This document shows, in pieces, positions 3,763 through 29,536 of a stretch of 64,000 nt of DNA. The position numbers and the translations under genes were made by a program. How positions within the stretch are numbered: position 1 is the first letter of the stretch; each line of letters starts with the position of its first letter. Origin of the DNA: a virus. The notes beneath the pieces were generated by a model. That model was not told the DNA's origin. It ran no database searches and was given only the letters and a program-made list of their open reading frames with translations. The stretch lies in IMG/VR virus record IMGVR_UViG_3300009506_000019, positions 64,001 to 128,000 of that record; one strand, 5' to 3'.

Positions 3763-4053
3763 CTATTCTCCGGCAGGACACTGATGCTCTGGTGTCCTAC
3801 GAATTTGGCCGCAATCCAAACAGAGGATAGATCCTTCGATCTTACACTTGGCACCTCTGATGGCCTGTACAACCAGACGCTGGTAATGCGCGTCTTTCTC
3901 ACGCGCTATAGCCTCGGCCTCTGTGGCTTCTTCTTTTGCTTCCCTCAGAGTATCCAACGTCTTTTGTTCAACAGTAGGCACATCTTTGGCCATAGCAGTC
4001 CTCGCCAACGCTGCGGCAGTCCTTCTTGCCTTGCGGTTCATTGTGTTAGTCAT
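3763..4053 (-). CDS. Hypothetical coiled-coil protein with C-terminal Cys cluster
   Basis: Operon spacing; helical E/K/A-rich core, CLDCG...HQC. Confidence 0.65.
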   Translation of the reverse strand: MTNTMNRKARRTAAALARTAMAKDVPTVEQKTLDTLREAKEEATEAEAIAREKDAHYQRLVVQAIRGAKCKIEGSILCLDCGQIRRTPEHQCPAGE

Positions 4054-4059
4054 AATAGA

Positions 4060-4392
4060 CTATACAATGGAACCGGCGTCGATTATCCCCTTCGCCAAAA
4101 GGTACTCGAACAGACCACGCTTGGCGGCATCATACGTCAACTCGCCATCGTTGGACGCATGTGTCGTAACAAGGGTGGTATAATCCTCTCCCTGAATGGA
4201 AACACTGGTCTCTTTACCAGTGGGGGTCATTCCTGGGACCCAATTGTCGGTCACAGTATTTCCATACTCAAGCTCGAGATGGATCATCTGGCGACGACGA
4301 TCATGCAACTGACGCATGATTGAGATCTGGTTGTAAGGGCCATTCGGATCAAGATCACCGACAGCCACGGGAGTAGTTAGTTGCCAAGGCAT
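4060..4392 (-). CDS. Putative fibre-associated/chaperone protein, paralog of 30963..31337
   Basis: Immediately downstream of adhesin fibre; LTT.V..GDL, EYG....WV.GM, YD...R.L...L...G shared with 30963..31337. Confidence 0.7.
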   Translation of the reverse strand: MPWQLTTPVAVGDLDPNGPYNQISIMRQLHDRRRQMIHLELEYGNTVTDNWVPGMTPTGKETSVSIQGEDYTTLVTTHASNDGELTYDAAKRGLFEYLLAKGIIDAGSIV

Positions 4393-4401
4393 GATTTTCT
4401 C

Positions 4402-6393
4402 CTATGTAGCGGAGCTTAACCCAGCTCCCTCTAGTACGTTAATAATTGCGTTTATAGCCGCTCTGGCTTCCGAGTCTACCGTTGTACCTCCAGTAGGATC
4501 GGAAATCTTAGTCGGCTGCGATGATGGTGGAACAGCTCCCCATGCCGCAAAACCACTACCAATCTGAAGTTCTAAATCATAAGAACCACCAATGGTTCCC
4601 ATAGTAACTCTATTGTTGCTGGTGGTTGTGGCACCTCTACCAAAAGCCATACTAGTATTGTGTGAAGCGTGTGCCTGATAGCCAAGTGCCACGGAACCCT
4701 GTATATTATCATCTATCTGAGTCGCAGCACCGATTGCAATAGAATAGTCTGCATTACCGGTTGCGGTTGATCCAACATCGGCCCCATCGCCGAGAGCAAT
4801 GGCACTTACTGAATTGTTCCACACCTTGGCGTTTCCACCAATGGACACTGAGCTACCCTGGCCAAGGTTTTGTGCGTTTACACCGATCGCAACACCACCG
4901 GTCTCACTTACTGTTGCTGCGCTTCCGATGGCAACCGAAGAAATACCTGTCGCCTGAGCGTTGTTACCCATAGCCACAGAAAATTGAAGTGTGGCATCAG
5001 TACCTGAACCAATAGCGACCGCACCAACACCAGTAGCAGTAGCGGTATCACCGACCGCCACTGCTGAAGAGGCACCACTAGAAGCTGAATAACCAATAGA
5101 AACCGCGTGTGTTGGAGTTGTTCCTGACGTAGAGGCTAGGTTGCCGACAATCACACTACCAGAACCACCACCACCCGCAGTTGCACCAGCACCAATTGCA
5201 ATCGTACCTGTATTTGTGGTGTTGATGTCTGCGCCGTTGCCGATGGCGATTGCCACAGACCCACTTCCAGCTGAAGCAAGACCTATCGCAATACCATTAC
5301 CTGCAATGGCTCCATCGCCAAGACCAACACCCCCAGCAGTTGAAGTCGTGCCTGTTCCAATAGCAATCGAATCATCACCAGTACATTGAGCACCGGTACC
5401 AAGAGCGATTGCTCTCAAGGAACTATCATTTACTGTAGAATCTTGGCCAATTGCGATCGATAGACTTGATCCACCACCCGTTGTGGTTCCAACTTTGGCT
5501 GCATATCCAATCGCTATGGCTGACGTGTTGCCATTCCACACCCTAGCGGATCTACCAAGTGCTACAGCGTCCGTGGCGCTGGCGTCAATTTCGGCGCTAT
5601 AGCCCAAAGACACTGTGCCTGAAGCGTAAGCTTTAGAGTATGGACCAACCGCAACTGCTGTTCCAGCTGTCGCTGATGAAGAAATTCCAACAGCAACAGA
5701 GCTTCCACCATTTGCAACAGAAGCTTGATATCCAACAGCAACAGATCCAATGCTATTGGTGTTGCTTGCTAAATAACCGAGAGCAACTGAGCTTCCTGAC
5801 CCGGCTGATGCCTGTGTTCCAATGGCAACACAACTCGTGGCGCTAGCTGCAGCCGTCGCAAGATATCCCATCACGATAGCGTAGTTCGCACCAGCACCAA
5901 CCGTAGGTCCTCTACCAATGGCAATAGCATTGGTACCAGACACATTGGGCGCATAGCCCATTGCAATCGCGTATGATGTAGAATCTTGCACCAGGGCATT
6001 GTAACCAATGGCGATAGCGTAATCAGAATTTCCAGTTGCAGTAGTTCCTATTCTAGCTTGGTAACCGACTGCAATACCACCAACAGTGTTATCATATACT
6101 TGAGCCGTGTTGCCAATTGCAATGCTGTTCGCACACGCATCGTTTATAGTGGCAGAACCACCGATCGCAATGCCGTAATCGGAATTTGCAGCAGCTGTTG
6201 ATCCAACATGTGCACTGTGTCCAATTGCCACTGAGTTGGAGGAGCTATCCCAAACCTGAGCCTGATTTCCAAGAGCAACGCTGCTTTCACACCCGTCTTT
6301 TACTGACGCAGTGTCACCAATAACCACACTGTATGCTGATCCACCAGTGGCTGAGCCTCCCACGTTACGATCGAACGCGAGCAATTGTCCCAA
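4402..6393 (-). CDS. C-terminal part of giant YadA-head-repeat (trimeric adhesin-like) fibre; frameshifted from 6300..9629
   Basis: Dozens of ~14-aa (S/A)(I/V)A(I/V)G repeats. No convincing own start; the repeat register continues from the upstream ORF. Confidence 0.75.
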   Translation of the reverse strand: MGQLLAFDRNVGGSATGGSAYSVVIGDTASVKDGCESSVALGNQAQVWDSSSNSVAIGHSAHVGSTAAANSDYGIAIGGSATINDACANSIAIGNTAQVYDNTVGGIAVGYQARIGTTATGNSDYAIAIGYNALVQDSTSYAIAMGYAPNVSGTNAIAIGRGPTVGAGANYAIVMGYLATAAASATSCVAIGTQASAGSGSSVALGYLASNTNSIGSVAVGYQASVANGGSSVAVGISSSATAGTAVAVGPYSKAYASGTVSLGYSAEIDASATDAVALGRSARVWNGNTSAIAIGYAAKVGTTTGGGSSLSIAIGQDSTVNDSSLRAIALGTGAQCTGDDSIAIGTGTTSTAGGVGLGDGAIAGNGIAIGLASAGSGSVAIAIGNGADINTTNTGTIAIGAGATAGGGGSGSVIVGNLASTSGTTPTHAVSIGYSASSGASSAVAVGDTATATGVGAVAIGSGTDATLQFSVAMGNNAQATGISSVAIGSAATVSETGGVAIGVNAQNLGQGSSVSIGGNAKVWNNSVSAIALGDGADVGSTATGNADYSIAIGAATQIDDNIQGSVALGYQAHASHNTSMAFGRGATTTSNNRVTMGTIGGSYDLELQIGSGFAAWGAVPPSSQPTKISDPTGGTTVDSEARAAINAIINVLEGAGLSSAT

Positions 6394-9300
6394 ACCTTGG
6401 TTTGAGCGCCTATGGCCACCACACCATGAGTAAGTGCTGTTGAGTTATACCCAATTGCAATACAATCGTCTTGGTTTACATGGGTACCGTCACCAATGGC
6501 CACACTGTATCCAATGGCCACACATCTTTCAGACTGGTCTGATATTGATGAATTATGACCAATAGCAATAGATTCAAGCGATGCTCCCGTAGCCGAATTT
6601 CCGATTTCAACCGACCGACCGATTGCGATCGCGTCTGTAGTGTTGTCCCAAATTGTTGCAAGAGTACCAATTGCAATTGAATTGTTTGCGGTAGACGGCA
6701 ATGTTGAGAAAGGAGCAATCGCAATGCCGTAACCAGCAGCACATGTTACCTGTTGGCCGATTGCAATCGAGCCTGCAGAACCTGACGCGGTTGTATTCCA
6801 GCCAACAGCTGTGCCACCACTACCAGTAGCAGATGACGATACACCAACAGCTGTGCCATACACTGCAGACGCTATTGAACTATCACCAACAGCAATGGCA
6901 CTGGCTTGGTTCACAGTAGCATTGCGTCCAATCGCCAATGTAGAATTGGCTGAAGCAGCTGCACCATAACCAATCGCCATCGCATAAGAAGATATGGCTT
7001 GGGCATTGGTGCCAATGGCCATCATATACGAGTGGCCAGACACCCCAGCGCCAGCTCCATAACCAATGGCCATAGAGCCACTGGAAAGTGTGACCGCCGC
7101 ATTTTGGCCAATAGCGATGCCGTTTCCGGCTGTCGAAGCTACCGAAGCAGAACTACCAATAGCGACCGCTCCGGTGCTAGCTGCAGTAGCGCCTGGGCCA
7201 GCTTTGAAGCTATTAGCACCAGTGCCAAGAGATGAAAGAGCTGTGCCACTTCCAACAGTTACGGAAGATCCATCATATGTGAATTCGGACGATCCACCAA
7301 ATGCACCAGCATTGTTATATTGAACTTGAGTATCGGCACCACCTGGAGAAGTAGAACCACCAGCCTCGTCTTGCCATGTTGCTGCTGATCCAGATGTAGC
7401 CTTCAATACCTGACCGGCTGTCGGGGCCGTAGCACTCGAAATGGCAACTACTGTGGTAGCAGTTCGAAGTCCACTGGCAGTACGGTCATCAGACAGGCGT
7501 GAATCACCAGTATCGATGAGTGTGGCATCTGATATCTTACTGTTCAAATTTGCAAGTGTGTCAACTGTATGAAAAGCTCCACCAAGAGCATGTGCTGTGA
7601 GACCAGCATCATCCTGCCATGTTGCAGCCGTGCCTGATGTGGCTTTCAACACCTGGCCAGCTGTTGGAGCTGTAGCACTTGAAATGGCCACAACTGTGGT
7701 AGCTGTGCGAAGCCCACTGGCGGTACGATCATTCGACAAACGCGAATCGCCCGTATCGATGAGTGTAGCGTCTGAGATTTTACTATTGAGATTTGCAAGC
7801 GTATCGGCTGAATGATAAGCGCCACCAAGAGTATGCGCTACCATACTTGAATCAAGATTTACCCAAGCTGAACCAGTATGGCCACGGAAATTTGAGCCAT
7901 CCCACTCGATTGCACCAGCTGTTGCGGTTGTTCCACCACCAACAATGATTCCCTTTCCAAGCTGAAGCTCGAGATCATAGGCACCAGCAATGGTACCAAT
8001 AGTACACCGACTTGCCGCAGTTGAAGCTGCGGTATAGCCAATGGCAACACTGTTTATGTGAGTAACAGACGCGGTGTCACCAACAGCAACCCCACCGGCT
8101 TGATTTACTAAAGCACCACCACCAACGGCAACCGTATAATTTGCTCCTGCCGACGCGGTATAACCAATTGCTATGGCATCAGATGATGCACAGGCAGCAC
8201 CATACCCAATAGCTGTAGTCCGCAATGCCGCTGCGTTGGCCGCTCCTCCAACCGCTGTACTGTTCTGAGCCAAAGCTGTTGTAGTGTAACCAATTGCTAC
8301 AGCATAGTTTTGTGCAGCATTGGCTTGATATCCAAGAGCAAGAGTTCCAGAAGCACCAGCTGTTGCAGACCCACCAACAGCGAACCCATATGCTGCTGTT
8401 GAAACAGCACCTGCTCCAATCGCAATAGCATTGCCATAAGAAGACGCGCCAGAACCAATGGATACGCTATTGACGCCAGTTCCAACAGCTCCCGGACCAA
8501 CCACAACAGCATGATCACACAATGCATTGACTTCGGCTTGATATCCAATGGCGATAGAATGTCCGGACGCTCCTATCGCAGAATTACCAACATCAGCTTG
8601 ATAACCGATGGCAATCGCATATGGGCAGTTATCCCAGATCTTTGTAGTGTAGCCCATTGCGATTGTGTCAGTGGCTGTCGCAACAACATTAGCAGAATAC
8701 CCAATGACTATCGAATTTGTTGCAAGACCAGAGCTAACATATCCAATTGCTATTGATGAATTGCCGGTAGCTTGGGCGTTTGGTCCAAGAGCAGTGCTGG
8801 CAAAGGCAGCGTCTGTAAACGGACCAACCGCAACTGCATTTGTGTTGTTCGACAATGCCGAACGACCTATCGCAATTGATGATGTGCCTGTGGTCTGAGC
8901 AGACAGCCCCATACTGATACTGTATTGTCCCGAGGCTGTGGTTAAACCACCAACCGCTACGGCTTGAGCGCCTGCGGTGGCGCTATTACCAACTGCTACA
9001 GAGTTCGTGTTGCTAACACTAGAAGATCGACCGACAGCGACAGACCCAGAAAAATTAGCAGTGGCTTGAGCACCAATAGCAACCGAACTACCTTGACCAG
9101 ATCCCGAGGGTACGAGAGCAGAGGCTTGGTATCCTACGGCCGTGCAATACTCACCACCCAAACCACCAGAACCGGCTTGTGCGCCGGAACCGATGGCAGT
9201 ATCATAGCTGGCATTAGTGATAGCATTGTATCCAATGGCTACCGTTTCTGGATCACCCGCACGGCTGCTATATCCGACCGCGACACCATGAATACCAGTC

Positions 9301-9629
9301 ACTCGTGCATCATACCCAACAGCAACGCTGTGTGATGATCCACAATAGGTGTTATGACCCAAGGCCGTGCCATTGGCAGCATCAACCCGAGCAAAATGAC
9401 CAACAGCTGTTGAGAGTGTACTTACTGCATGAACCCATGCACCATGCCCAACAACTGTACATTCAGAACCTTGACCAGTTGCTCCCTCTCCAATAGCTAC
9501 TGCATGAGAACCGCTCGCAACGGCTCCATTGCCAGCCTTAAAGCTCTCAGCACCGCTGCCAGGAGACAGAAGGGCACCCACAAAAGTTTGGATGCCTTGA
9601 TATACTGCGTCTCCGTATACTTTACCCAT
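6300..9629 (-). CDS. N-terminal part of giant YadA-head-repeat fibre/adhesin
   Basis: Two blocks of AIAIG repeats separated by a duplicated 81-aa stalk-like unit and a GGADTQVQYNNAGAFGG phage-fibre motif; last ~21 aa out of repeat frame. Confidence 0.8.
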   Translation of the reverse strand: MGKVYGDAVYQGIQTFVGALLSPGSGAESFKAGNGAVASGSHAVAIGEGATGQGSECTVVGHGAWVHAVSTLSTAVGHFARVDAANGTALGHNTYCGSSHSVAVGYDARVTGIHGVAVGYSSRAGDPETVAIGYNAITNASYDTAIGSGAQAGSGGLGGEYCTAVGYQASALVPSGSGQGSSVAIGAQATANFSGSVAVGRSSSVSNTNSVAVGNSATAGAQAVAVGGLTTASGQYSISMGLSAQTTGTSSIAIGRSALSNNTNAVAVGPFTDAAFASTALGPNAQATGNSSIAIGYVSSGLATNSIVIGYSANVVATATDTIAMGYTTKIWDNCPYAIAIGYQADVGNSAIGASGHSIAIGYQAEVNALCDHAVVVGPGAVGTGVNSVSIGSGASSYGNAIAIGAGAVSTAAYGFAVGGSATAGASGTLALGYQANAAQNYAVAIGYTTTALAQNSTAVGGAANAAALRTTAIGYGAACASSDAIAIGYTASAGANYTVAVGGGALVNQAGGVAVGDTASVTHINSVAIGYTAASTAASRCTIGTIAGAYDLELQLGKGIIVGGGTTATAGAIEWDGSNFRGHTGSAWVNLDSSMVAHTLGGAYHSADTLANLNSKISDATLIDTGDSRLSNDRTASGLRTATTVVAISSATAPTAGQVLKATSGTAATWQDDAGLTAHALGGAFHTVDTLANLNSKISDATLIDTGDSRLSDDRTASGLRTATTVVAISSATAPTAGQVLKATSGSAATWQDEAGGSTSPGGADTQVQYNNAGAFGGSSEFTYDGSSVTVGSGTALSSLGTGANSFKAGPGATAASTGAVAIGSSASVASTAGNGIAIGQNAAVTLSSGSMAIGYGAGAGVSGHSYMMAIGTNAQAISSYAMAIGYGAAASANSTLAIGRNATVNQASAIAVGDSSIASAVYGTAVGVSSSATGSGGTAVGWNTTASGSAGSIAIGQQVTCAAGYGIAIAPFSTLPSTANNSIAIGTLATIWDNTTDAIAIGRSVEIGNSATGASLESIAIGHNSSISDQSERCVAIGYSVAIGDGTHVNQDDCIAIGYNSTALTHGVVAIGAQTKVWDNCSRSIVTWEAQPLVDQHTVWLLVTLRQ
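7367..7838 (-). repeat. Tandem 243-nt (81-aa) intragenic duplication
   Basis: AH.LGGA.H..DTLANLNSKISDATLIDTGDSRLS.DRTASGLRTATTVVAISSATAPTAGQVLKATSG.AATWQD occurs twice. Confidence 0.9.
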
Positions 9630-25509: not shown

Positions 25510-26274
25510 CTAGGTGTCGGCAATCACAGTGTACGTCTTGATGAGCGTGCCCACGCCCGACAGTAAGCTGAGACCGCTGACATCGATGGTGACGGTGATG
25601 ATGTCACCGATCTCGTAGATCTTTGTGGCTCCCGCGTCGGTGTCCATCACGACATCTATGGTAAGGTAGCCAGCCTCGAACTGAGGAGTCCCAGCAGGGG
25701 TCGCCGGCTTCACACATGTCGGAGCACCCCCCGTCCCCGTTGCAATGGGTACATAGGCAGGGGTGACTGTGGGAACGAAGTTGGCCCAGCCGTGGAGCAA
25801 CCCTTCAGAGGTAACCAGCTTCACACCGACTTTTTTGATCAATTCCCCAGCCGCTGCTCCATTGAGATCACCAACCTCAATGTCTTCAGCCAGGGCTCCG
25901 GGGTAAATGTTCAGAGCCGCATCCCCTTCTGCCATTGCCCCAACCACCTTCTCCAAACTCCGAACTGCATTTTGGAGAGCGAGCATAGAAAGAGAAGACT
26001 GATCATTCGCTGACTCGAGAGAATTCGTTAAGGTGCTGGTAGCCGCATCAAATTTGTCTTTACCAGCGTCTTCGAATTCATCAGGGGTGTCTGGATCTTC
26101 CTCAACAGTATAGCTAATATGCCCAGCTTGCTGGAGCTTTACCAGCTCGTCCACAGCTTGTTCTGGAAGATCATCAAAAAATCGTTTACTCTTCTCACCA
26201 CTAGCAGGGACGGAGAGTCTCAAAGACTGAATTGAAACTTTGACGTTTCGAAGATTCTTAATAGTAAGAAGCAT
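25510..26274 (-). CDS. Hypothetical (possibly virion) protein
   Basis: GAGGAG before ATG 26274; upstream promoter. Confidence 0.65.
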   Translation of the reverse strand: MLLTIKNLRNVKVSIQSLRLSVPASGEKSKRFFDDLPEQAVDELVKLQQAGHISYTVEEDPDTPDEFEDAGKDKFDAATSTLTNSLESANDQSSLSMLALQNAVRSLEKVVGAMAEGDAALNIYPGALAEDIEVGDLNGAAAGELIKKVGVKLVTSEGLLHGWANFVPTVTPAYVPIATGTGGAPTCVKPATPAGTPQFEAGYLTIDVVMDTDAGATKIYEIGDIITVTIDVSGLSLLSGVGTLIKTYTVIADT

Positions 26275-26394: not shown

Positions 26395-26470
26395 TGGCGG
26401 GAGAGGAGGGACTCGAACCCTCATCAAACAGGTTAACGGCCTGTTGCTCAGCCAATTGAGCTACACTCCC
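26395..26470 (-). tRNA. tRNA-Asn(GTT), C33
   Basis: Cloverleaf, loop CC-GTT-AA, encoded CCA. Confidence 0.88.
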
Positions 26471-26474
26471 GCAT

Positions 26475-26549
26475 TGGTGGGGCGGAGTGGAATCGAACCA
26501 CTGCTCTCGGATTTTCAGTCCAAAGCTCTACCAACTGAGCTACCACCCC
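26475..26549 (-). tRNA. tRNA-Phe(GAA)
   Basis: Cloverleaf, loop CT-GAA-AA, CCA. Confidence 0.93.
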
Positions 26550-26552
26550 ATG

Positions 26553-26625
26553 TGCAGAGCTGGTCAGCCACGCGCTACCCATCCCAGATTGTGCTGGGCC
26601 AAAGCCTTGTCCGCTGCGCTCTGCA
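26553..26625 (-). ncRNA. Unassigned tRNA-sized structured RNA
   Basis: 8-bp closing stem TGCAGAGC/GCTCTGCA, CCCAG/CTGGG hairpin, no TTCGA loop. Confidence 0.45.
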
Positions 26626-26638
26626 ACTCTTACTTGTT

Positions 26639-26715
26639 TGGTGGACCGGACGGGACTCGAACCCGTGACCTCCTGGGTGCAAACCAAGCGCTCTCCCAAC
26701 TGAGCTACGCGGCCC
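26639..26715 (-). tRNA. tRNA-Ala(TGC)
   Basis: Loop TT-TGC-AC, G3-U70, one bulged base in acceptor stem, CCA. Confidence 0.92.
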
Positions 26716-26716
26716 A

Positions 26717-26792
26717 TGGAGCTGGTGAGAGGAATTGAACCTCCAACATCCGGTTTACAAGACCGGGGCTCTGCCAATTGAGCTACACCAGC
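26717..26792 (-). tRNA. tRNA-Thr(TGT)
   Basis: Loop CT-TGT-AA, CCA. Confidence 0.93.
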
Positions 26793-26810
26793 TCTTTGCC
26801 AGCGTTCAAT

Positions 26811-26885
26811 TGGCGGGCCTACTCCGACTCGAACGGAGATCTCCGGTTTTGGAGACCGGCATCCTACCAATTGAACGATAGACCC
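26811..26885 (-). tRNA. tRNA-Trp(CCA)
   Basis: Loop CT-CCA-AA, CCA end. Confidence 0.92.
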
Positions 26886-26905
26886 TTGTTTCTTCACCAC
26901 CCGGC

Positions 26906-26980
26906 TGGTGGGCCGGGAGGGAATCGAACCCTCAACAAACGGGTTAAAAGCCCGCTGCGCTACCGTTGCGCCACCGGCCC
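26906..26980 (-). tRNA. tRNA-Lys(TTT)
   Basis: Loop CT-TTT-AA, CCA. Confidence 0.93.
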
Positions 26981-27014
26981 ACACCGCCGATGGTCTTCTC
27001 CTCAGCGAACCGGA

Positions 27015-27091
27015 TGGTCCGCCAGGGAGGACTCGAACCCCCGACACGCGGGGTAGAAACCCGCTGCTCTGTCCAACTGAGCTACTGACGG
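27015..27091 (-). tRNA. tRNA-Arg(TCT)
   Basis: Loop TT-TCT-AC, CCA. Confidence 0.9.
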
Positions 27092-27111
27092 ACAGATCCG
27101 ATATTCGCGAC

Positions 27112-27187
27112 TGGTAGGCGAGGGGAGAATCGAACTCACCAACCTGTCGCTTATAAGGCGACGGCTCTACCATTGAGCTACTCGCCA
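27112..27187 (-). tRNA. tRNA-Ile(TAT)
   Basis: Loop CT-TAT-AA, U1:U72 mismatch, CCA. Confidence 0.88.
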
Positions 27188-27199
27188 TTTCTCTCGAGT

Positions 27200-27274
27200 T
27201 GGACCGCCAGGTCGGAATCGAACCGACGTGCGCCTGCTTGGAAGGCAGGGGACCAGCCACTAGCCCACTGGCGG
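27200..27274 (-). tRNA. tRNA-Gly(TCC)
   Basis: Loop CT-TCC-AA, U73, CCA. Confidence 0.9.
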
Positions 27275-27277
27275 TTT

Positions 27278-27353
27278 TGGTGCGCAGAGCAGGGCTCGAA
27301 CCTGCGACCCTCTGCTTGTAAGGCAGACGCTCTCCCAACTGAGCTACCCGCGC
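27278..27353 (-). tRNA. tRNA-Val(TAC)
   Basis: Loop CT-TAC-AA, CCA. Confidence 0.93.
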
Positions 27354-27355
27354 AC

Positions 27356-27431
27356 TGGTCCAGGTGAGTGGAATTGAACCACTGACATCACGATTATCGG
27401 TCGTGTGCTCTCCCATCTGAGCTACACCTGG
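27356..27431 (-). tRNA. tRNA-Ile(GAT), C33
   Basis: Loop CC-GAT-AA, CCA. Confidence 0.9.
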
Positions 27432-27443
27432 ACAATGAAAGGC

Positions 27444-27567
27444 GGGGCTGGGGCGTCGCGCTCTTTCCATGCATCGACCATTCGCACCCTCTGGCTTAGC
27501 GAGCCAGCGCACAGTTTCTGGGGTGTCAGCCCCATGGTCTACCCCACGCTCTGACAAGCGTTGCCCC
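27444..27567 (-). ncRNA. Unassigned multi-stem RNA with complementary (kissing) loops
   Basis: Hairpin loops TGTCAG and CTGACA are exact complements; additional GACCAT/ATGGTC and CTGGCT/AGCCAG stems. Confidence 0.6.
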
Positions 27568-27574
27568 ATAATTT

Positions 27575-27649
27575 TGGTAGCGGGAGCGAGAATCGAACTC
27601 GCGACGGTCTGGTTATGAGCCAGATGTTCTACCACTGAACTATCCCGCA
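27575..27649 (-). tRNA. tRNA-Met(CAT)
   Basis: Loop CT-CAT-AA, U1:U72 mismatch, CCA; initiator/elongator status unclear. Confidence 0.88.
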
Positions 27650-27660
27650 ACAAATGCAAG

Positions 27661-27736
27661 TGGAGGGCCAGGCAGGAGTCGAACCCGCGACACCTTGGTC
27701 CGTAGCCAAGTGCTCTGTCCACTGAGCTACTGGCCC
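27661..27736 (-). tRNA. tRNA-Arg(ACG)
   Basis: Loop CT-ACG-GA, CCA. Confidence 0.92.
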
Positions 27737-27738
27737 TT

Positions 27739-27814
27739 TGGCGGTGCGTACGGGAATCGAACCCGTCGTTTCCTGAGTGACAGTCAGGCCGGTTCACCAG
27801 CTCCGTCACGCACC
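27739..27814 (-). tRNA. tRNA-Asp(GTC)
   Basis: Loop CT-GTC-AC, G73, CCA. Confidence 0.9.
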
Positions 27815-27901
27815 GAGACGTGACCCAACTGTCCTTCAGTAGGTTCTGACCGTTTTGTCGATACCACCGAAGGAGGTCAGTTAGGCCACGGTGGTATCTC
27901 G
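27815..27901 (-). promoter_or_regulatory. Putative attenuator: mutually exclusive RNA structures between leader 1 and tRNA-Asp
   Basis: Perfect 10-bp GATACCACCG/CGGTGGTATC helix competes with long CGTGGCCTAACTG..TCCTTCGGT/ACTGAAGGA-CAGTTGGGTCACG hairpin. Confidence 0.65.
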
Positions 27902-27988
27902 AAAATTCGCTTTAATACCGGCCCACATTGTCGTCGTTATGACGACTCTTCCGGTCCTTGCGACCGAATGTGTGCCGAGGGGTAACAT
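27881..27988 (-). CDS. Putative leader peptide 1 (35 aa) of the 14-tRNA operon
   Basis: MLPLGTHSVARTGRVVITTTMWAGIKANFRDTTVA*; last 27 residues use exactly the 12 amino acids of the downstream tRNAs; ATG 7 nt after TATAAT. Confidence 0.8.
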   Translation of the reverse strand: MLPLGTHSVARTGRVVITTTMWAGIKANFRDTTVA

Positions 27989-27995
27989 CACGATC

Positions 27996-28024
27996 ATTAT
28001 AACACAGCATGCTGTGCGTGTGAA
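27996..28024 (-). promoter_or_regulatory. Sigma70-type extended -10 promoter of the 14-tRNA operon, with 14-bp palindrome in spacer
   Basis: TTCACA-17nt-TATAAT, TGn; CACAGCATGCTGTG at 28003-28016. Confidence 0.75.
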
Positions 28025-28031
28025 TTATTAG

Positions 28032-28115
28032 TGCTGAGGGCGGGACTCGAACCCGCACGAGCAATTGCCCAGGAGATTTTAAGTCTCCAGTGTCTACCAA
28101 TTCCACCACCCCAGC
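28032..28115 (-). tRNA. tRNA-Leu(TAA), CCA not encoded
   Basis: Long variable arm, loop CT-TAA-AA, ends A-CTA. Confidence 0.92.
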
Positions 28116-28116
28116 T

Positions 28117-28202
28117 TGGTGGGCAAGGAGGGAATCGAACCCTCAATCCCGAAGGCACTGGTATTTGAAGCCAGCGTGTATACCAAGTTCCACCACTTGC
28201 CC
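28117..28202 (-). tRNA. tRNA-Leu(CAA)
   Basis: Long variable arm, loop TT-CAA-AT, CCA. Confidence 0.9.
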
Positions 28203-28280
28203 ATGAGCTACGCGCCCTGGAACCCTGTCGTAGCTCGATGACGCCCTCCTACGTGCTTGACGCCACACCACTTTCTCGAT

Positions 28281-28366
28281 TGGTGGGTGCGGAGGGAGTC
28301 GAACCCTCAATCCCGAAGGCACCAGATCCTAAATCTGGCGTGTATCCCAAGTTCCACCACGCACCC
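28281..28366 (-). tRNA. tRNA-Leu(TAG)
   Basis: Long variable arm, loop TT-TAG-GA, CCA. Confidence 0.92.
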
Positions 28367-28367
28367 T

Positions 28368-28453
28368 TGGTACGGGAGGCGGGACTCGAACCCGCACGGA
28401 CAAGCCACATGCTCCTCGGGCATGCGCGTCTACCATGATTCCGCCACTCCCGT
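28368..28453 (-). tRNA. tRNA-Leu(GAG), C33
   Basis: Long variable arm, loop CC-GAG-GA, CCA. Confidence 0.9.
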
Positions 28454-28463
28454 AGCTTACTTT

Positions 28464-28529
28464 TTACAAGGATAAGAGTCGCAGGAGGAAACCTGCGACA
28501 GCGATCGAGTTGTGCGTTTTATTCGCCAT
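28464..28529 (-). CDS. Putative leader peptide 2 (21 aa) of the tRNA-Leu operon
   Basis: MANKTHNSIAVAGFLLRLLSL*; Leu codons CTC CTG CTC TTA TTG; overlaps 8-bp hairpin GTCGCAGG/CCTGCGAC; stop 10 nt before tRNA-Leu(GAG). Confidence 0.7.
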   Translation of the reverse strand: MANKTHNSIAVAGFLLRLLSL

Positions 28530-28538
28530 CTCACTCCA

Positions 28539-28567
28539 AGTATAACATACTGGTGACCGCACATCAA
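28539..28567 (-). promoter_or_regulatory. Sigma70-type extended -10 promoter of the tRNA-Leu operon
   Basis: TTGATG-17nt-TATACT with TGn. Confidence 0.7.
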
Positions 28568-28760: not shown

Positions 28761-28812
28761 ATTGACAACCACCACGTGATTATGATCTAATTGGAAGTGA
28801 TAGGAGAACGTC

Positions 28813-28923
28813 ATGGATACCGTGATGAAAAACACAGGCTTCGCTGTTCTTGCCAACGCCCTTGTTGGTCAGTCGCAGCCGTGTTACTCCTATCATCATT
28901 ATTCACAACCACACAGTAGTTAA
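28813..28923 (+). CDS. Putative leader peptide 3 (36 aa) of the 7-tRNA operon
   Basis: AGGAG RBS; MDTVMKNTGFAVLANALVGQSQPCYSYHHYSQPHSS*; last 17 residues are only Q,S,P,C,Y,H; stop 16 nt before tRNA-Ser. Confidence 0.85.
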   Translation: MDTVMKNTGFAVLANALVGQSQPCYSYHHYSQPHSS

Positions 28924-29029: not shown

Positions 29030-29047
29030 TTTTCTTGTGAGGTTGTG

Positions 29048-29230
29048 ATGAAGGATGAATTCAAGAAAGCAGTAATCATGACAGGTGACGTACCGCACTG
29101 TTCGTGTCGGTATTGCAAAAACCTGAATCGCACCAGAATCGACAGGAAAAAGCAAAGAAAACAAAAGAGAAAAAGGAGGGCAAGACAGATTTTGAAGAAA
29201 TATTTACGTACGGGAGTAGCGCAGTGGTAG
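29048..29230 (+). CDS. Small basic protein with HCxCxxC motif inside tRNA operon
   Basis: GAGG before ATG 29048; MKDEFKKAVIMTGDVPHCSCRYCKNLNRTRIDRKKQRKQKRKRRARQILKKYLRTGVAQW*; last codons overlap tRNA-Pro. Confidence 0.6.
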   Translation: MKDEFKKAVIMTGDVPHCSCRYCKNLNRTRIDRKKQRKQKRKRRARQILKKYLRTGVAQW

Positions 29231-29375: not shown

Positions 29376-29384
29376 GCTTAAATT

Positions 29385-29455
29385 GCACCCGGCCGCAGGC
29401 GAAAGCCGAATTGGACCGAGCGAAAGCCGAAAGTCCGAGGATGACGGCCGGGTGC
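29385..29455 (+). ncRNA. Unassigned structured RNA with GAAA tetraloops
   Basis: Perfect 11-bp stem GCACCCGGCCG/CGGCCGGGTGC enclosing GGC-GAAA-GCC and GGAC..GC-GAAA-GC..GTCC. Confidence 0.6.
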
Positions 29456-29460
29456 TTTAT

Positions 29461-29536
29461 GGCGGTTGTAGCTCAATGGAAGAGCATCCGGTTGTGGCCC
29501 GGAAGACGAGGAGTTCAATTCTCCCCAATCGCCCCA
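29461..29536 (+). tRNA. tRNA-His(GTG)
   Basis: G-1:C73, loop TT-GTG-GC, CCA. Confidence 0.92.

Follow-up and report, generated by a model that had tools for sequence, protein, structure and literature searches.

A short open reading frame ahead of a phage tRNA operon reads as an inventory of the tRNAs that the operon encodes. The frame, which we call Leader 1, lies between a promoter-like site and a block of 14 tRNA genes, and its codons 9–35 specify all 12 amino acids served by that block (D, R, M, I, V, G, K, W, T, A, F and N) and no others. The codon match is real and not due to chance. We propose, from the sequence evidence set out below, that Leader 1 is read by ribosomes as a sensor of tRNA supply and so gates the 14-tRNA operon, a reading to which we give a probability of about 0.6. 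In most discussions, phage tRNA genes figure as aids to codon usage or as substitutes for tRNAs that host defences destroy; to our knowledge, little has been established about the control of their expression. We found no description in the full-text literature of leader peptides controlling tRNA genes or phage tRNA arrays.

The stretch of DNA analysed here (the window) is 64,000 nucleotides long and comprises bases 64001–128000 of a 166,061-bp IMG/VR virus record that CheckV rates as complete. The record encodes a contractile-tail phage, with a tail sheath that matches phrog_15433 and is 37–40% identical to those of phiKZ-like Pseudomonas phages, and it also encodes a ribonucleotide reductase. 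Many YadA-head repeats are found in two large adjacent proteins (663 and 1,109 residues; window 4402–9629, minus strand), which are probably tail fibres and as such hint at a Gram-negative host.

Twenty-five tRNA genes lie between positions 26395 and 29782, a count on which ARAGORN and Rfam concur. They form three units: 14 genes on the minus strand, four tRNA-Leu genes on the minus strand and seven genes on the plus strand (Table 1). The order within the 14-tRNA operon is Asp, Arg(acg), Met, Ile(gat), Val, Gly, Ile(tat), Arg(tct), Lys, Trp, Thr, Ala, Phe, Asn. The possibility that a ‘missing’ tRNA-Glu is hidden in the 216-nt leader gap was excluded; its gene is at 25834..25909, elsewhere in the genome. 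Several other features of the cluster were recorded. The tRNA-Leu(taa) gene (28031–28115) is called without an encoded 3′ CCA, whereas its neighbours have one. The 180-nt gap between tRNA-Ser(gct) and tRNA-Pro is filled by a very basic, Cys-containing small ORF (29046–29212, plus strand) that enters the tRNA-Pro gene, and a stable multi-branch hairpin is the fold of the 86-nt spacer between tRNA-Ser(tga) and tRNA-His (29376–29461, plus strand; −40.2 kcal/mol, z = −4.6). Folding of the 143-, 89- and 78-nt spacers of the cluster (27432–27574, 26550–26638 and 28203–28280) is no better than that of shuffled sequences.

Table 1. Leader 1, its predicted RNA elements, the three tRNA operons and the related leader frames (window coordinates unless a contig is named).
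Feature	Position	Strand	Description
Sigma-70-type promoter	27996..28024	−	−35 TTCACA, 17-nt spacer, extended −10 TGnTATAAT; 11/12 matches
Leader 1 ORF	27881..27988	−	ATG + 34 codons + TAA (27883..27881)
5′ RNA domain, codons 5–23	27920..27976	−	Three-way junction; outer stem 27972..27967 / 27929..27924 plus two hairpins (MFE)
AAUUUUC, codons 28–30	27901..27907	−	Invariant in 6/6 homologues, including synonymous sites; immediately 5′ of helix B:C
Segment B (‘region 2’), codons 30/31–34	27889..27898	−	5′ arm of hairpin B:C
Segment C (‘region 3’)	27860..27869	−	3′ arm of B:C, 20 nt beyond the TAA
3′ domain, long hairpin (‘region 3:4’)	27819..27890	−	Outer stem 27889..27878 / 27831..27820
14-tRNA operon	26395..27814	−	Putatively regulated unit; ARAGORN and Rfam
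Four-tRNA-Leu operon	28453..28031	−	ARAGORN and Rfam
Seven-tRNA operon		+	Ser, Pro, Ser, His, Cys, Gln, Tyr; ARAGORN and Rfam
Leader 2 ORF	28529..28464	−	21 codons, ahead of the four-tRNA-Leu operon
Leader 3 ORF	28813..28923	+	36 codons, upstream of the Ser-Pro-Ser-His-Cys-Gln-Tyr operon
tRNA-Glu upstream frames	L005:11152-11300; L013:289-400; L014:251-300; L012:3531-3600; L026:1498-1560	−	Short frames in five relatives

Leader 1 begins directly behind its putative promoter. The sole strong promoter-like site nearby, TTCACA-17-TGnTATAAT, starts 7 nt past the end of tRNA-Leu(taa), so that Leader 1 could also receive read-through transcription from the Leu operon. The TATAAT element (28001..27996) is followed by 7 nt and then by the ATG at 27988, which is the spacing given in the original prediction; this geometry suggests that transcription starts at or beside the ATG. 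The first 12 nt, including the start-codon region, are unpaired in the MFE fold of the window sequence. Leader 1 thus has the arrangement of an attenuator leader, a short ORF with an accessible start between a promoter and the first gene of the unit, here a tRNA gene. The codon list previously reported for the ORF is exact (35 sense codons), and the amino acids L, P, H and S, said to be limited to early codons, are present in codons 2–8 only. Indeed, all sequence statements made about Leader 1 in that prediction are confirmed.

The match extends from amino acids to individual tRNAs. Under standard wobble rules, each of the 14 operon tRNAs has a cognate codon in Leader 1, and the split isoacceptors are sampled as had been claimed: ATA and ATT call on the two Ile tRNAs, and the pair of Arg tRNAs is served by AGA/AGG and CGA. 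Among 2,561 genomic frames of equal length, 0.08% cover the full set of 14 (P = 0.0008). A terminal run of at least 27 residues drawn from the 12-residue set occurs in Leader 1 alone among the 12,190 stop-terminated frames found in all six frames of the 166-kb genome. The 12-residue set is largely specified by purine-first codons; the test was therefore conditioned on the purine or pyrimidine class of each first codon base, and the match retained a P of about 6e-4. The other two frames of the same DNA hold just 8 of the 12 residues. Enrichment of leader codons for amino acids tied to the regulated genes is a mark of attenuators, and here the tie is to the identity of the tRNAs and not to a biosynthetic pathway. 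Nine of the 27 sensor codons (GTC three times, ACC three times, GCC twice and GGT) fall outside the standard wobble range of the operon’s own tRNAs.

The other two tRNA operons also have leaders, and their C-terminal codons, like those of Leader 1, match the tRNAs of their own operon. In Leader 3 the last 17 residues are S, P, H, C, Q and Y only, exactly the six amino acids of the operon that follows; it is the only frame in the genome with such a terminal run (conditional P about 5e-7). Over their last 17 residues, neither Leader 1 nor Leader 3 has residues of the other’s set, or Leu. Leader 2 has Leu at five of its eight final residues (CTC, CTG, CTC, TTA, TTG), a proportion equalled by 13 of 8,128 frames. 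It is served by a promoter-like TTGATG-17-TATACT (promoter and ORF together span 28464–28567, minus strand), and the ORF traverses a terminator-like hairpin with a U-rich tail (28499..28478) directly before the four tRNA-Leu genes. Leader 1 has no such terminator and instead has a 72-nt hairpin domain. Upstream of Leader 3 are AGGAG and, by eye, a promoter-like TTGACA/TCTAAT pair that the promoter scan did not flag. In the MFE fold of the Leader 3 region (28795–28923; z = −3.5), the Shine-Dalgarno region pairs with the Tyr-Ser-Tyr-His sensor codons. Leaders 1, 2 and 3 share no sequence similarity with one another. Three unrelated leaders, each matched to its own tRNA cargo, rule out coincidence.

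We found five relatives of Leader 1, giving six homologues including that of the window. The tRNA-Asp gene, and not the leader itself, served as the search anchor; this identified L005, a viral contig, and the metagenome contigs L012, L013 and L014. A peptide profile run against 1.84 billion protein representatives gave two more leaders, one of which provided DNA (L026, with copies L025 and L027). The tRNA gene order of the window recurs in the relatives. In all five, the Leader 1 ORF is open from a homologous ATG to a homologous TAA over 35–37 codons; frameshifts and stops, named in the original prediction as evidence that would count against the ORF, are found in none of these leaders. Three indels occur inside the ORF and all are 3 nt long, whereas those downstream of it have other lengths.

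What is retained in these homologues is the set of amino acids. All 12 are present in the leader frame of all six, and the other frames hold 7–10. Trp occupies three different alignment columns, and Lys, Ile, Gly and Met shift as well, yet none is ever lost. A column-shuffle test of the retained set gives P = 0.002, a figure inflated by shared ancestry. In the five relatives, 13/15, 16/17, 17/18, 12/14 and 15/16 of the operon tRNAs have a cognate codon in the leader. Moreover, an ATA codon is present exactly where Ile(tat) or a second CAT tRNA is present (6/6 homologues), and leader AAG never occurs without Lys(ctt), nor CGG without Arg(ccg). The last 27 residues are entirely within the set in the window (27/27) and nearly so in L012 and L005 (26/27 each) and L013, L014 and L026 (24/27 each), the foreign residues being P, S, Q, L and E. 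Because the relatives tolerate one to three foreign residues, set exclusivity is not required. The original idea that the ORF lists the tRNAs of its operon is thus backed by a run unique in the genome, by two matched sister leaders and by the presence of all 12 amino acids in every relative.

A conserved ORF could also encode a working protein. On this account Leader 1 would be a functional 35-residue micro-protein, for example one for host takeover or anti-defence, that simply shares a transcript with the tRNAs. The N-F-x-D motif towards the C-terminus never varies, nor does the last Ala, and in two metagenomes gene callers had extended the ORF to a greater length. The pattern of change is otherwise not that of a protein under purifying selection. 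Peptide identity to the window leader is 29–57% (four relatives aligned), although the adjacent tRNA-Asp gene is almost the same across five of the six homologues. Pairwise codon differences are dominated by non-synonymous changes (257, against 75 synonymous), and divergence at the three codon positions (0.36, 0.45 and 0.42) shows no third-position excess. The variable residue of N-F-x-D follows RNA pairing, the search of protein representatives returned the same leaders only, and a protein function predicts no match to the tRNA set. We consider a micro-protein very improbable. A peptide that is not conserved as a protein fits a leader peptide, and selection appears to act on composition and on the open frame, not on the protein.

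The promoter arrangement is conserved more loosely. A promoter lies directly upstream of the leader in five of the six homologues, and the scan scored none in L012. The window and L013 have the −10 element 7–8 nt before the ATG, as does L012 by eye. In L005, L014 and L026 it lies 22–26 nt upstream, with GAGG in a short 5′ UTR; leaderless initiation is therefore not a family trait. In L012 only, an ORF of about 170 residues is inserted (3991–4510) between tRNA-Leu(taa) and the promoter of the Asp operon. The insert looks like a mobile, homing-endonuclease-like element, and the promoter–leader unit is intact just downstream of it.

The relatives offered a further observation at a different locus. 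In all five, a divergent tRNA-Glu pair is preceded by a short frame in which GAA (Glu) is followed by Arg and soon by a stop (Table 1). The frame ends F-L-E-R-stop in four relatives and E-S-E-R-R-stop in L012. It may serve as a Glu leader with a single sensor codon, or be no more than a conserved element for processing.

Wider searches added no further homologue of Leader 1. No relatives were found among viral contigs with the neighbouring 263-residue protein, and no matches with an exact 32-nt leader pattern. The tail sheath retrieved two short contigs only, at 57% identity. A degenerate leader motif recovered only the already known L005 among viral contigs; it also gave a single chance match, in an Acetobacter genome sequence without tRNAs. 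The terminal-run statistic gave no signal in seven unrelated tRNA-cluster phage contigs chosen by a tRNA-Asp pattern (six were scored), in a crude screen with a brittle statistic that misses relatives with one foreign residue near the C-terminus. A tRNA with a CTA anticodon (L008:675-747; an amber suppressor, called tRNA-Pyl by ARAGORN) is encoded on an unrelated viral contig of 166.9 kb that has the tRNA-Asp anticodon arm in common with the window.

Leader 1 RNA is predicted to be strongly folded. The whole 175-nt leader has an MFE of −74.2 kcal/mol (z = −6.1 against shuffles). The three-way junction described in the original prediction is the MFE fold of the ORF, and the relatives have an equivalent long bulged hairpin of different sequence in this 5′ domain. 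Next comes the invariant AAUUUUC, which may be a pause or an RNA-level element.

The 3′ end of the ORF falls within two mutually exclusive helices. The first, hairpin B:C, is present in every one of the six homologues, with energies of −16 to −26 kcal/mol (z −2.8 to −4.5). It shows double compensatory changes at four positions, and codon 30 and its pairing partner change together, the encoded residue going from R to Q to L. The second is the long hairpin, a 72-nt domain of −42.3 kcal/mol (z = −6.7) that is recovered in the RNAalifold consensus and whose outer stem buries the last two codons and the stop codon of Leader 1. In an alignment of the homologues, 87% of the cells of the long-range stem are paired compared with 22–44% in slid controls, and its covariation score is reached by 1 of 500 shuffles. 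Segment C overlaps a strand (27874..27864) whose partner in the alternative fold is 27843..27832; because the full long hairpin uses part of C, the two structures exclude each other. The MFE fold of the untranslated leader contains the long hairpin in five of the six homologues, whereas that of L012 uses B:C. Exclusive helices that overlap the end of a leader ORF are a feature of attenuators, and here both covary across the six homologues.

So much structure raises the possibility that the region is a structured non-coding 5′ leader, or a small stable RNA of the tRNA precursor, in which the ORF and its composition are incidental. Small stable RNAs of a comparable kind are found in the T4 tRNA cluster. 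The strong folding and the covarying helices in both domains suit such an RNA, as do several conserved stretches that are invariant even at synonymous sites and the lack of third-codon-position periodicity. A random sequence of the same composition would be open over 35 codons with a probability of about 0.2, a second reading frame is also open in four of the six homologues, and, as the ORF overlaps strongly selected RNA structure, its conservation could be partly at the RNA level. However, a non-coding RNA cannot account for 12 amino acids that are kept in frame 0 alone in every homologue while their positions shift. Nor does it explain why indels within the ORF, unlike those downstream, are all multiples of three, or why two unrelated leaders in the window match their own, different tRNA sets. 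It has no matching Rfam family either: a search of 27815..28030 that included the T-box covariance model gave no match even at E up to 10, and at gathering thresholds only tRNAs were reported. We regard a purely non-coding leader as quite unlikely. In the absence of an Rfam match we also dropped T-box, tmRNA and ribozyme identities for Leader 1. ARAGORN reported no tmRNA, and an Rfam match to permuted tmRNA was at chance level and elsewhere (28209..28308, E = 0.86).

Leader 1 reads best as a translated sensor, and we can outline how it might work along the lines of the trp attenuator. Host RNA polymerase would start at or beside the ATG, and a ribosome would then read 35 codons, among which each tRNA species of the downstream operon is needed at least once; the peptide itself would be a by-product. 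The last six codons and the stop codon sit in the two competing predicted folds, B:C and the far more stable long hairpin. A ribosome that runs smoothly to the stop would cover B, leaving C to pair downstream so that the long hairpin closes; this would be the ‘off’, or default, state, and untranslated RNA would take the same fold. A ribosome stalled earlier, at a codon whose tRNA is scarce, would leave B free to capture newly transcribed C, so that no long hairpin forms and the operon is ‘on’. Output of the tRNA block would thus be raised when the matching tRNAs are short, for example after host shut-off or a tRNA-cleaving defence. The K, N, F and D codons lie very near B, where a stalled ribosome would itself cover B, so they would not be sensors under this trp-like scheme. 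We infer that Leader 1 is translated, that ribosome position chooses the fold and that the response has the sign given here; we hold the sign with less confidence than the reading of Leader 1 as a ribosome-read regulatory leader.

The output step would differ from that of a classical attenuator. In none of the six homologues does an intrinsic terminator (hairpin plus U-tract) separate the ORF from tRNA-Asp, and the longest T run past the stop codon is 2–4. Post-stop RNA has a C/G ratio of 1.0–1.65 and is strongly structured, the exposed part being only the C-rich loop of B:C, of about 20 nt; with this ratio and this structure, it offers no obvious Rho loading site. As no U-tract follows the long hairpin, the candidates for output are Rho-dependent or U-tract-independent termination, RNase III-type processing and stability control.

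One rival account keeps the sensor but makes its output post-transcriptional, and opposite or otherwise different. Complete translation of the leader, which would require all of these tRNAs to be at hand, would melt the hairpin at the stop codon and so promote processing or stability of the tRNA precursor, as a check of translation competence or positive feedback. Such a mechanism would suit the lack of a terminator in every homologue, and the duplex of roughly 30 bp in the long hairpin resembles the substrates of RNase III. Four further pairs (88–91 with the last four leader nt) can, in the window, carry the long hairpin to just 5′ of G1 of tRNA-Asp, where it could hinder RNase P. However, in the relatives the hairpin ends 8–14 nt before the tRNA, so RNase P occlusion is not conserved; we rejected blocking of the RNase P site for this reason, since the hairpin abuts the tRNA in the window only. 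The tRNAs of an array are excised separately, so an effect on the first would not gate the operon, and making fewer tRNAs when tRNAs are scarce brings no obvious benefit. Pairing of the leader tail with nt 5–10 of tRNA-Asp looked compensatory in one relative, and it was discarded because its energies are no better than those of shuffled tails (P 0.02–0.69). We judge the post-transcriptional account unlikely, if less so than either a non-coding leader or a micro-protein. A TnaC-like arrest motif, W-x3-D, was also rejected, the distance from W to D varying across the homologues.

A sensor read by the ribosome places Leader 1 close to several known systems, and identical to none. Like the leaders of ilvGMEDA (Ile/Val/Leu) and thr (Thr/Ile), it is an ORF right behind a promoter with codons that name several amino acids. 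Its topology is that of the trp leader, with B as region 2, C as region 3 and the distal strand as region 4; in both, the end of the ORF overlaps exclusive 2:3 and 3:4 helices, so that ribosome position can choose the fold. There the likeness ends. The ilv, thr and trp leaders control biosynthetic enzymes, whereas Leader 1 precedes tRNA genes, in a phage. They use runs of codons, whereas Leader 1 samples 12 amino acids (14 tRNA species), most of them at just one or a few codons. And, unlike classical attenuators, its 3:4 equivalent is without a U-tract in all six homologues. Because Leader 1 lacks an intrinsic terminator and would control tRNA genes, we do not class it as a member of the ilv/thr attenuators.

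Two further classes share some of these properties. In the Rho-dependent switches of Salmonella mgtA (mgtL) and corA (corL), and in tnaC, a leader ORF is combined with alternative stem-loops and no intrinsic terminator, and codon-specific translation speed sets the fold. Leader 1 has the same three elements: the ORF, the alternative stem-loops and the lack of an intrinsic terminator. These switches, however, each respond to a single amino acid or ion and act on genes for proteins, and Leader 1 is without a clear C-rich unstructured Rho site. T-box riboswitches resemble Leader 1 in being leader RNAs that report tRNA status through alternative helices. Unlike Leader 1, they bind tRNA directly, have no ORF, sense a single tRNA and control genes for aminoacyl-tRNA synthetases or amino acids.

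The three leaders of the window suggest a more general circuit, for which we consider the chances evenly balanced. Each tRNA operon would be gated by a translated inventory ORF, and loss of any one of the matching host tRNAs, whether through shut-off, codon mismatch or an anticodon-nuclease defence, would turn on the whole set of replacements; Leader 1 would be the 12-amino-acid, terminator-less member. If such a circuit is true, the output mechanism of a two-state RNA without a terminator would itself be new.

Reporter fusions and coupled in vitro systems would allow a direct test of the hypothesis, and Leader 1 offers a test bed for a ribosome-driven RNA switch that lacks a canonical terminator. 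A leader with codons matched to its cargo also provides a simple genomic signature for finding regulated tRNA arrays. If our reading is correct, Leader 1 would be a natural 12-input sensor contained within 105 nt. Leader-peptide attenuation would then reach beyond amino-acid biosynthesis to the translation apparatus itself, and phages would gauge decoding capacity through the ribosome and adjust their tRNA supply on demand.
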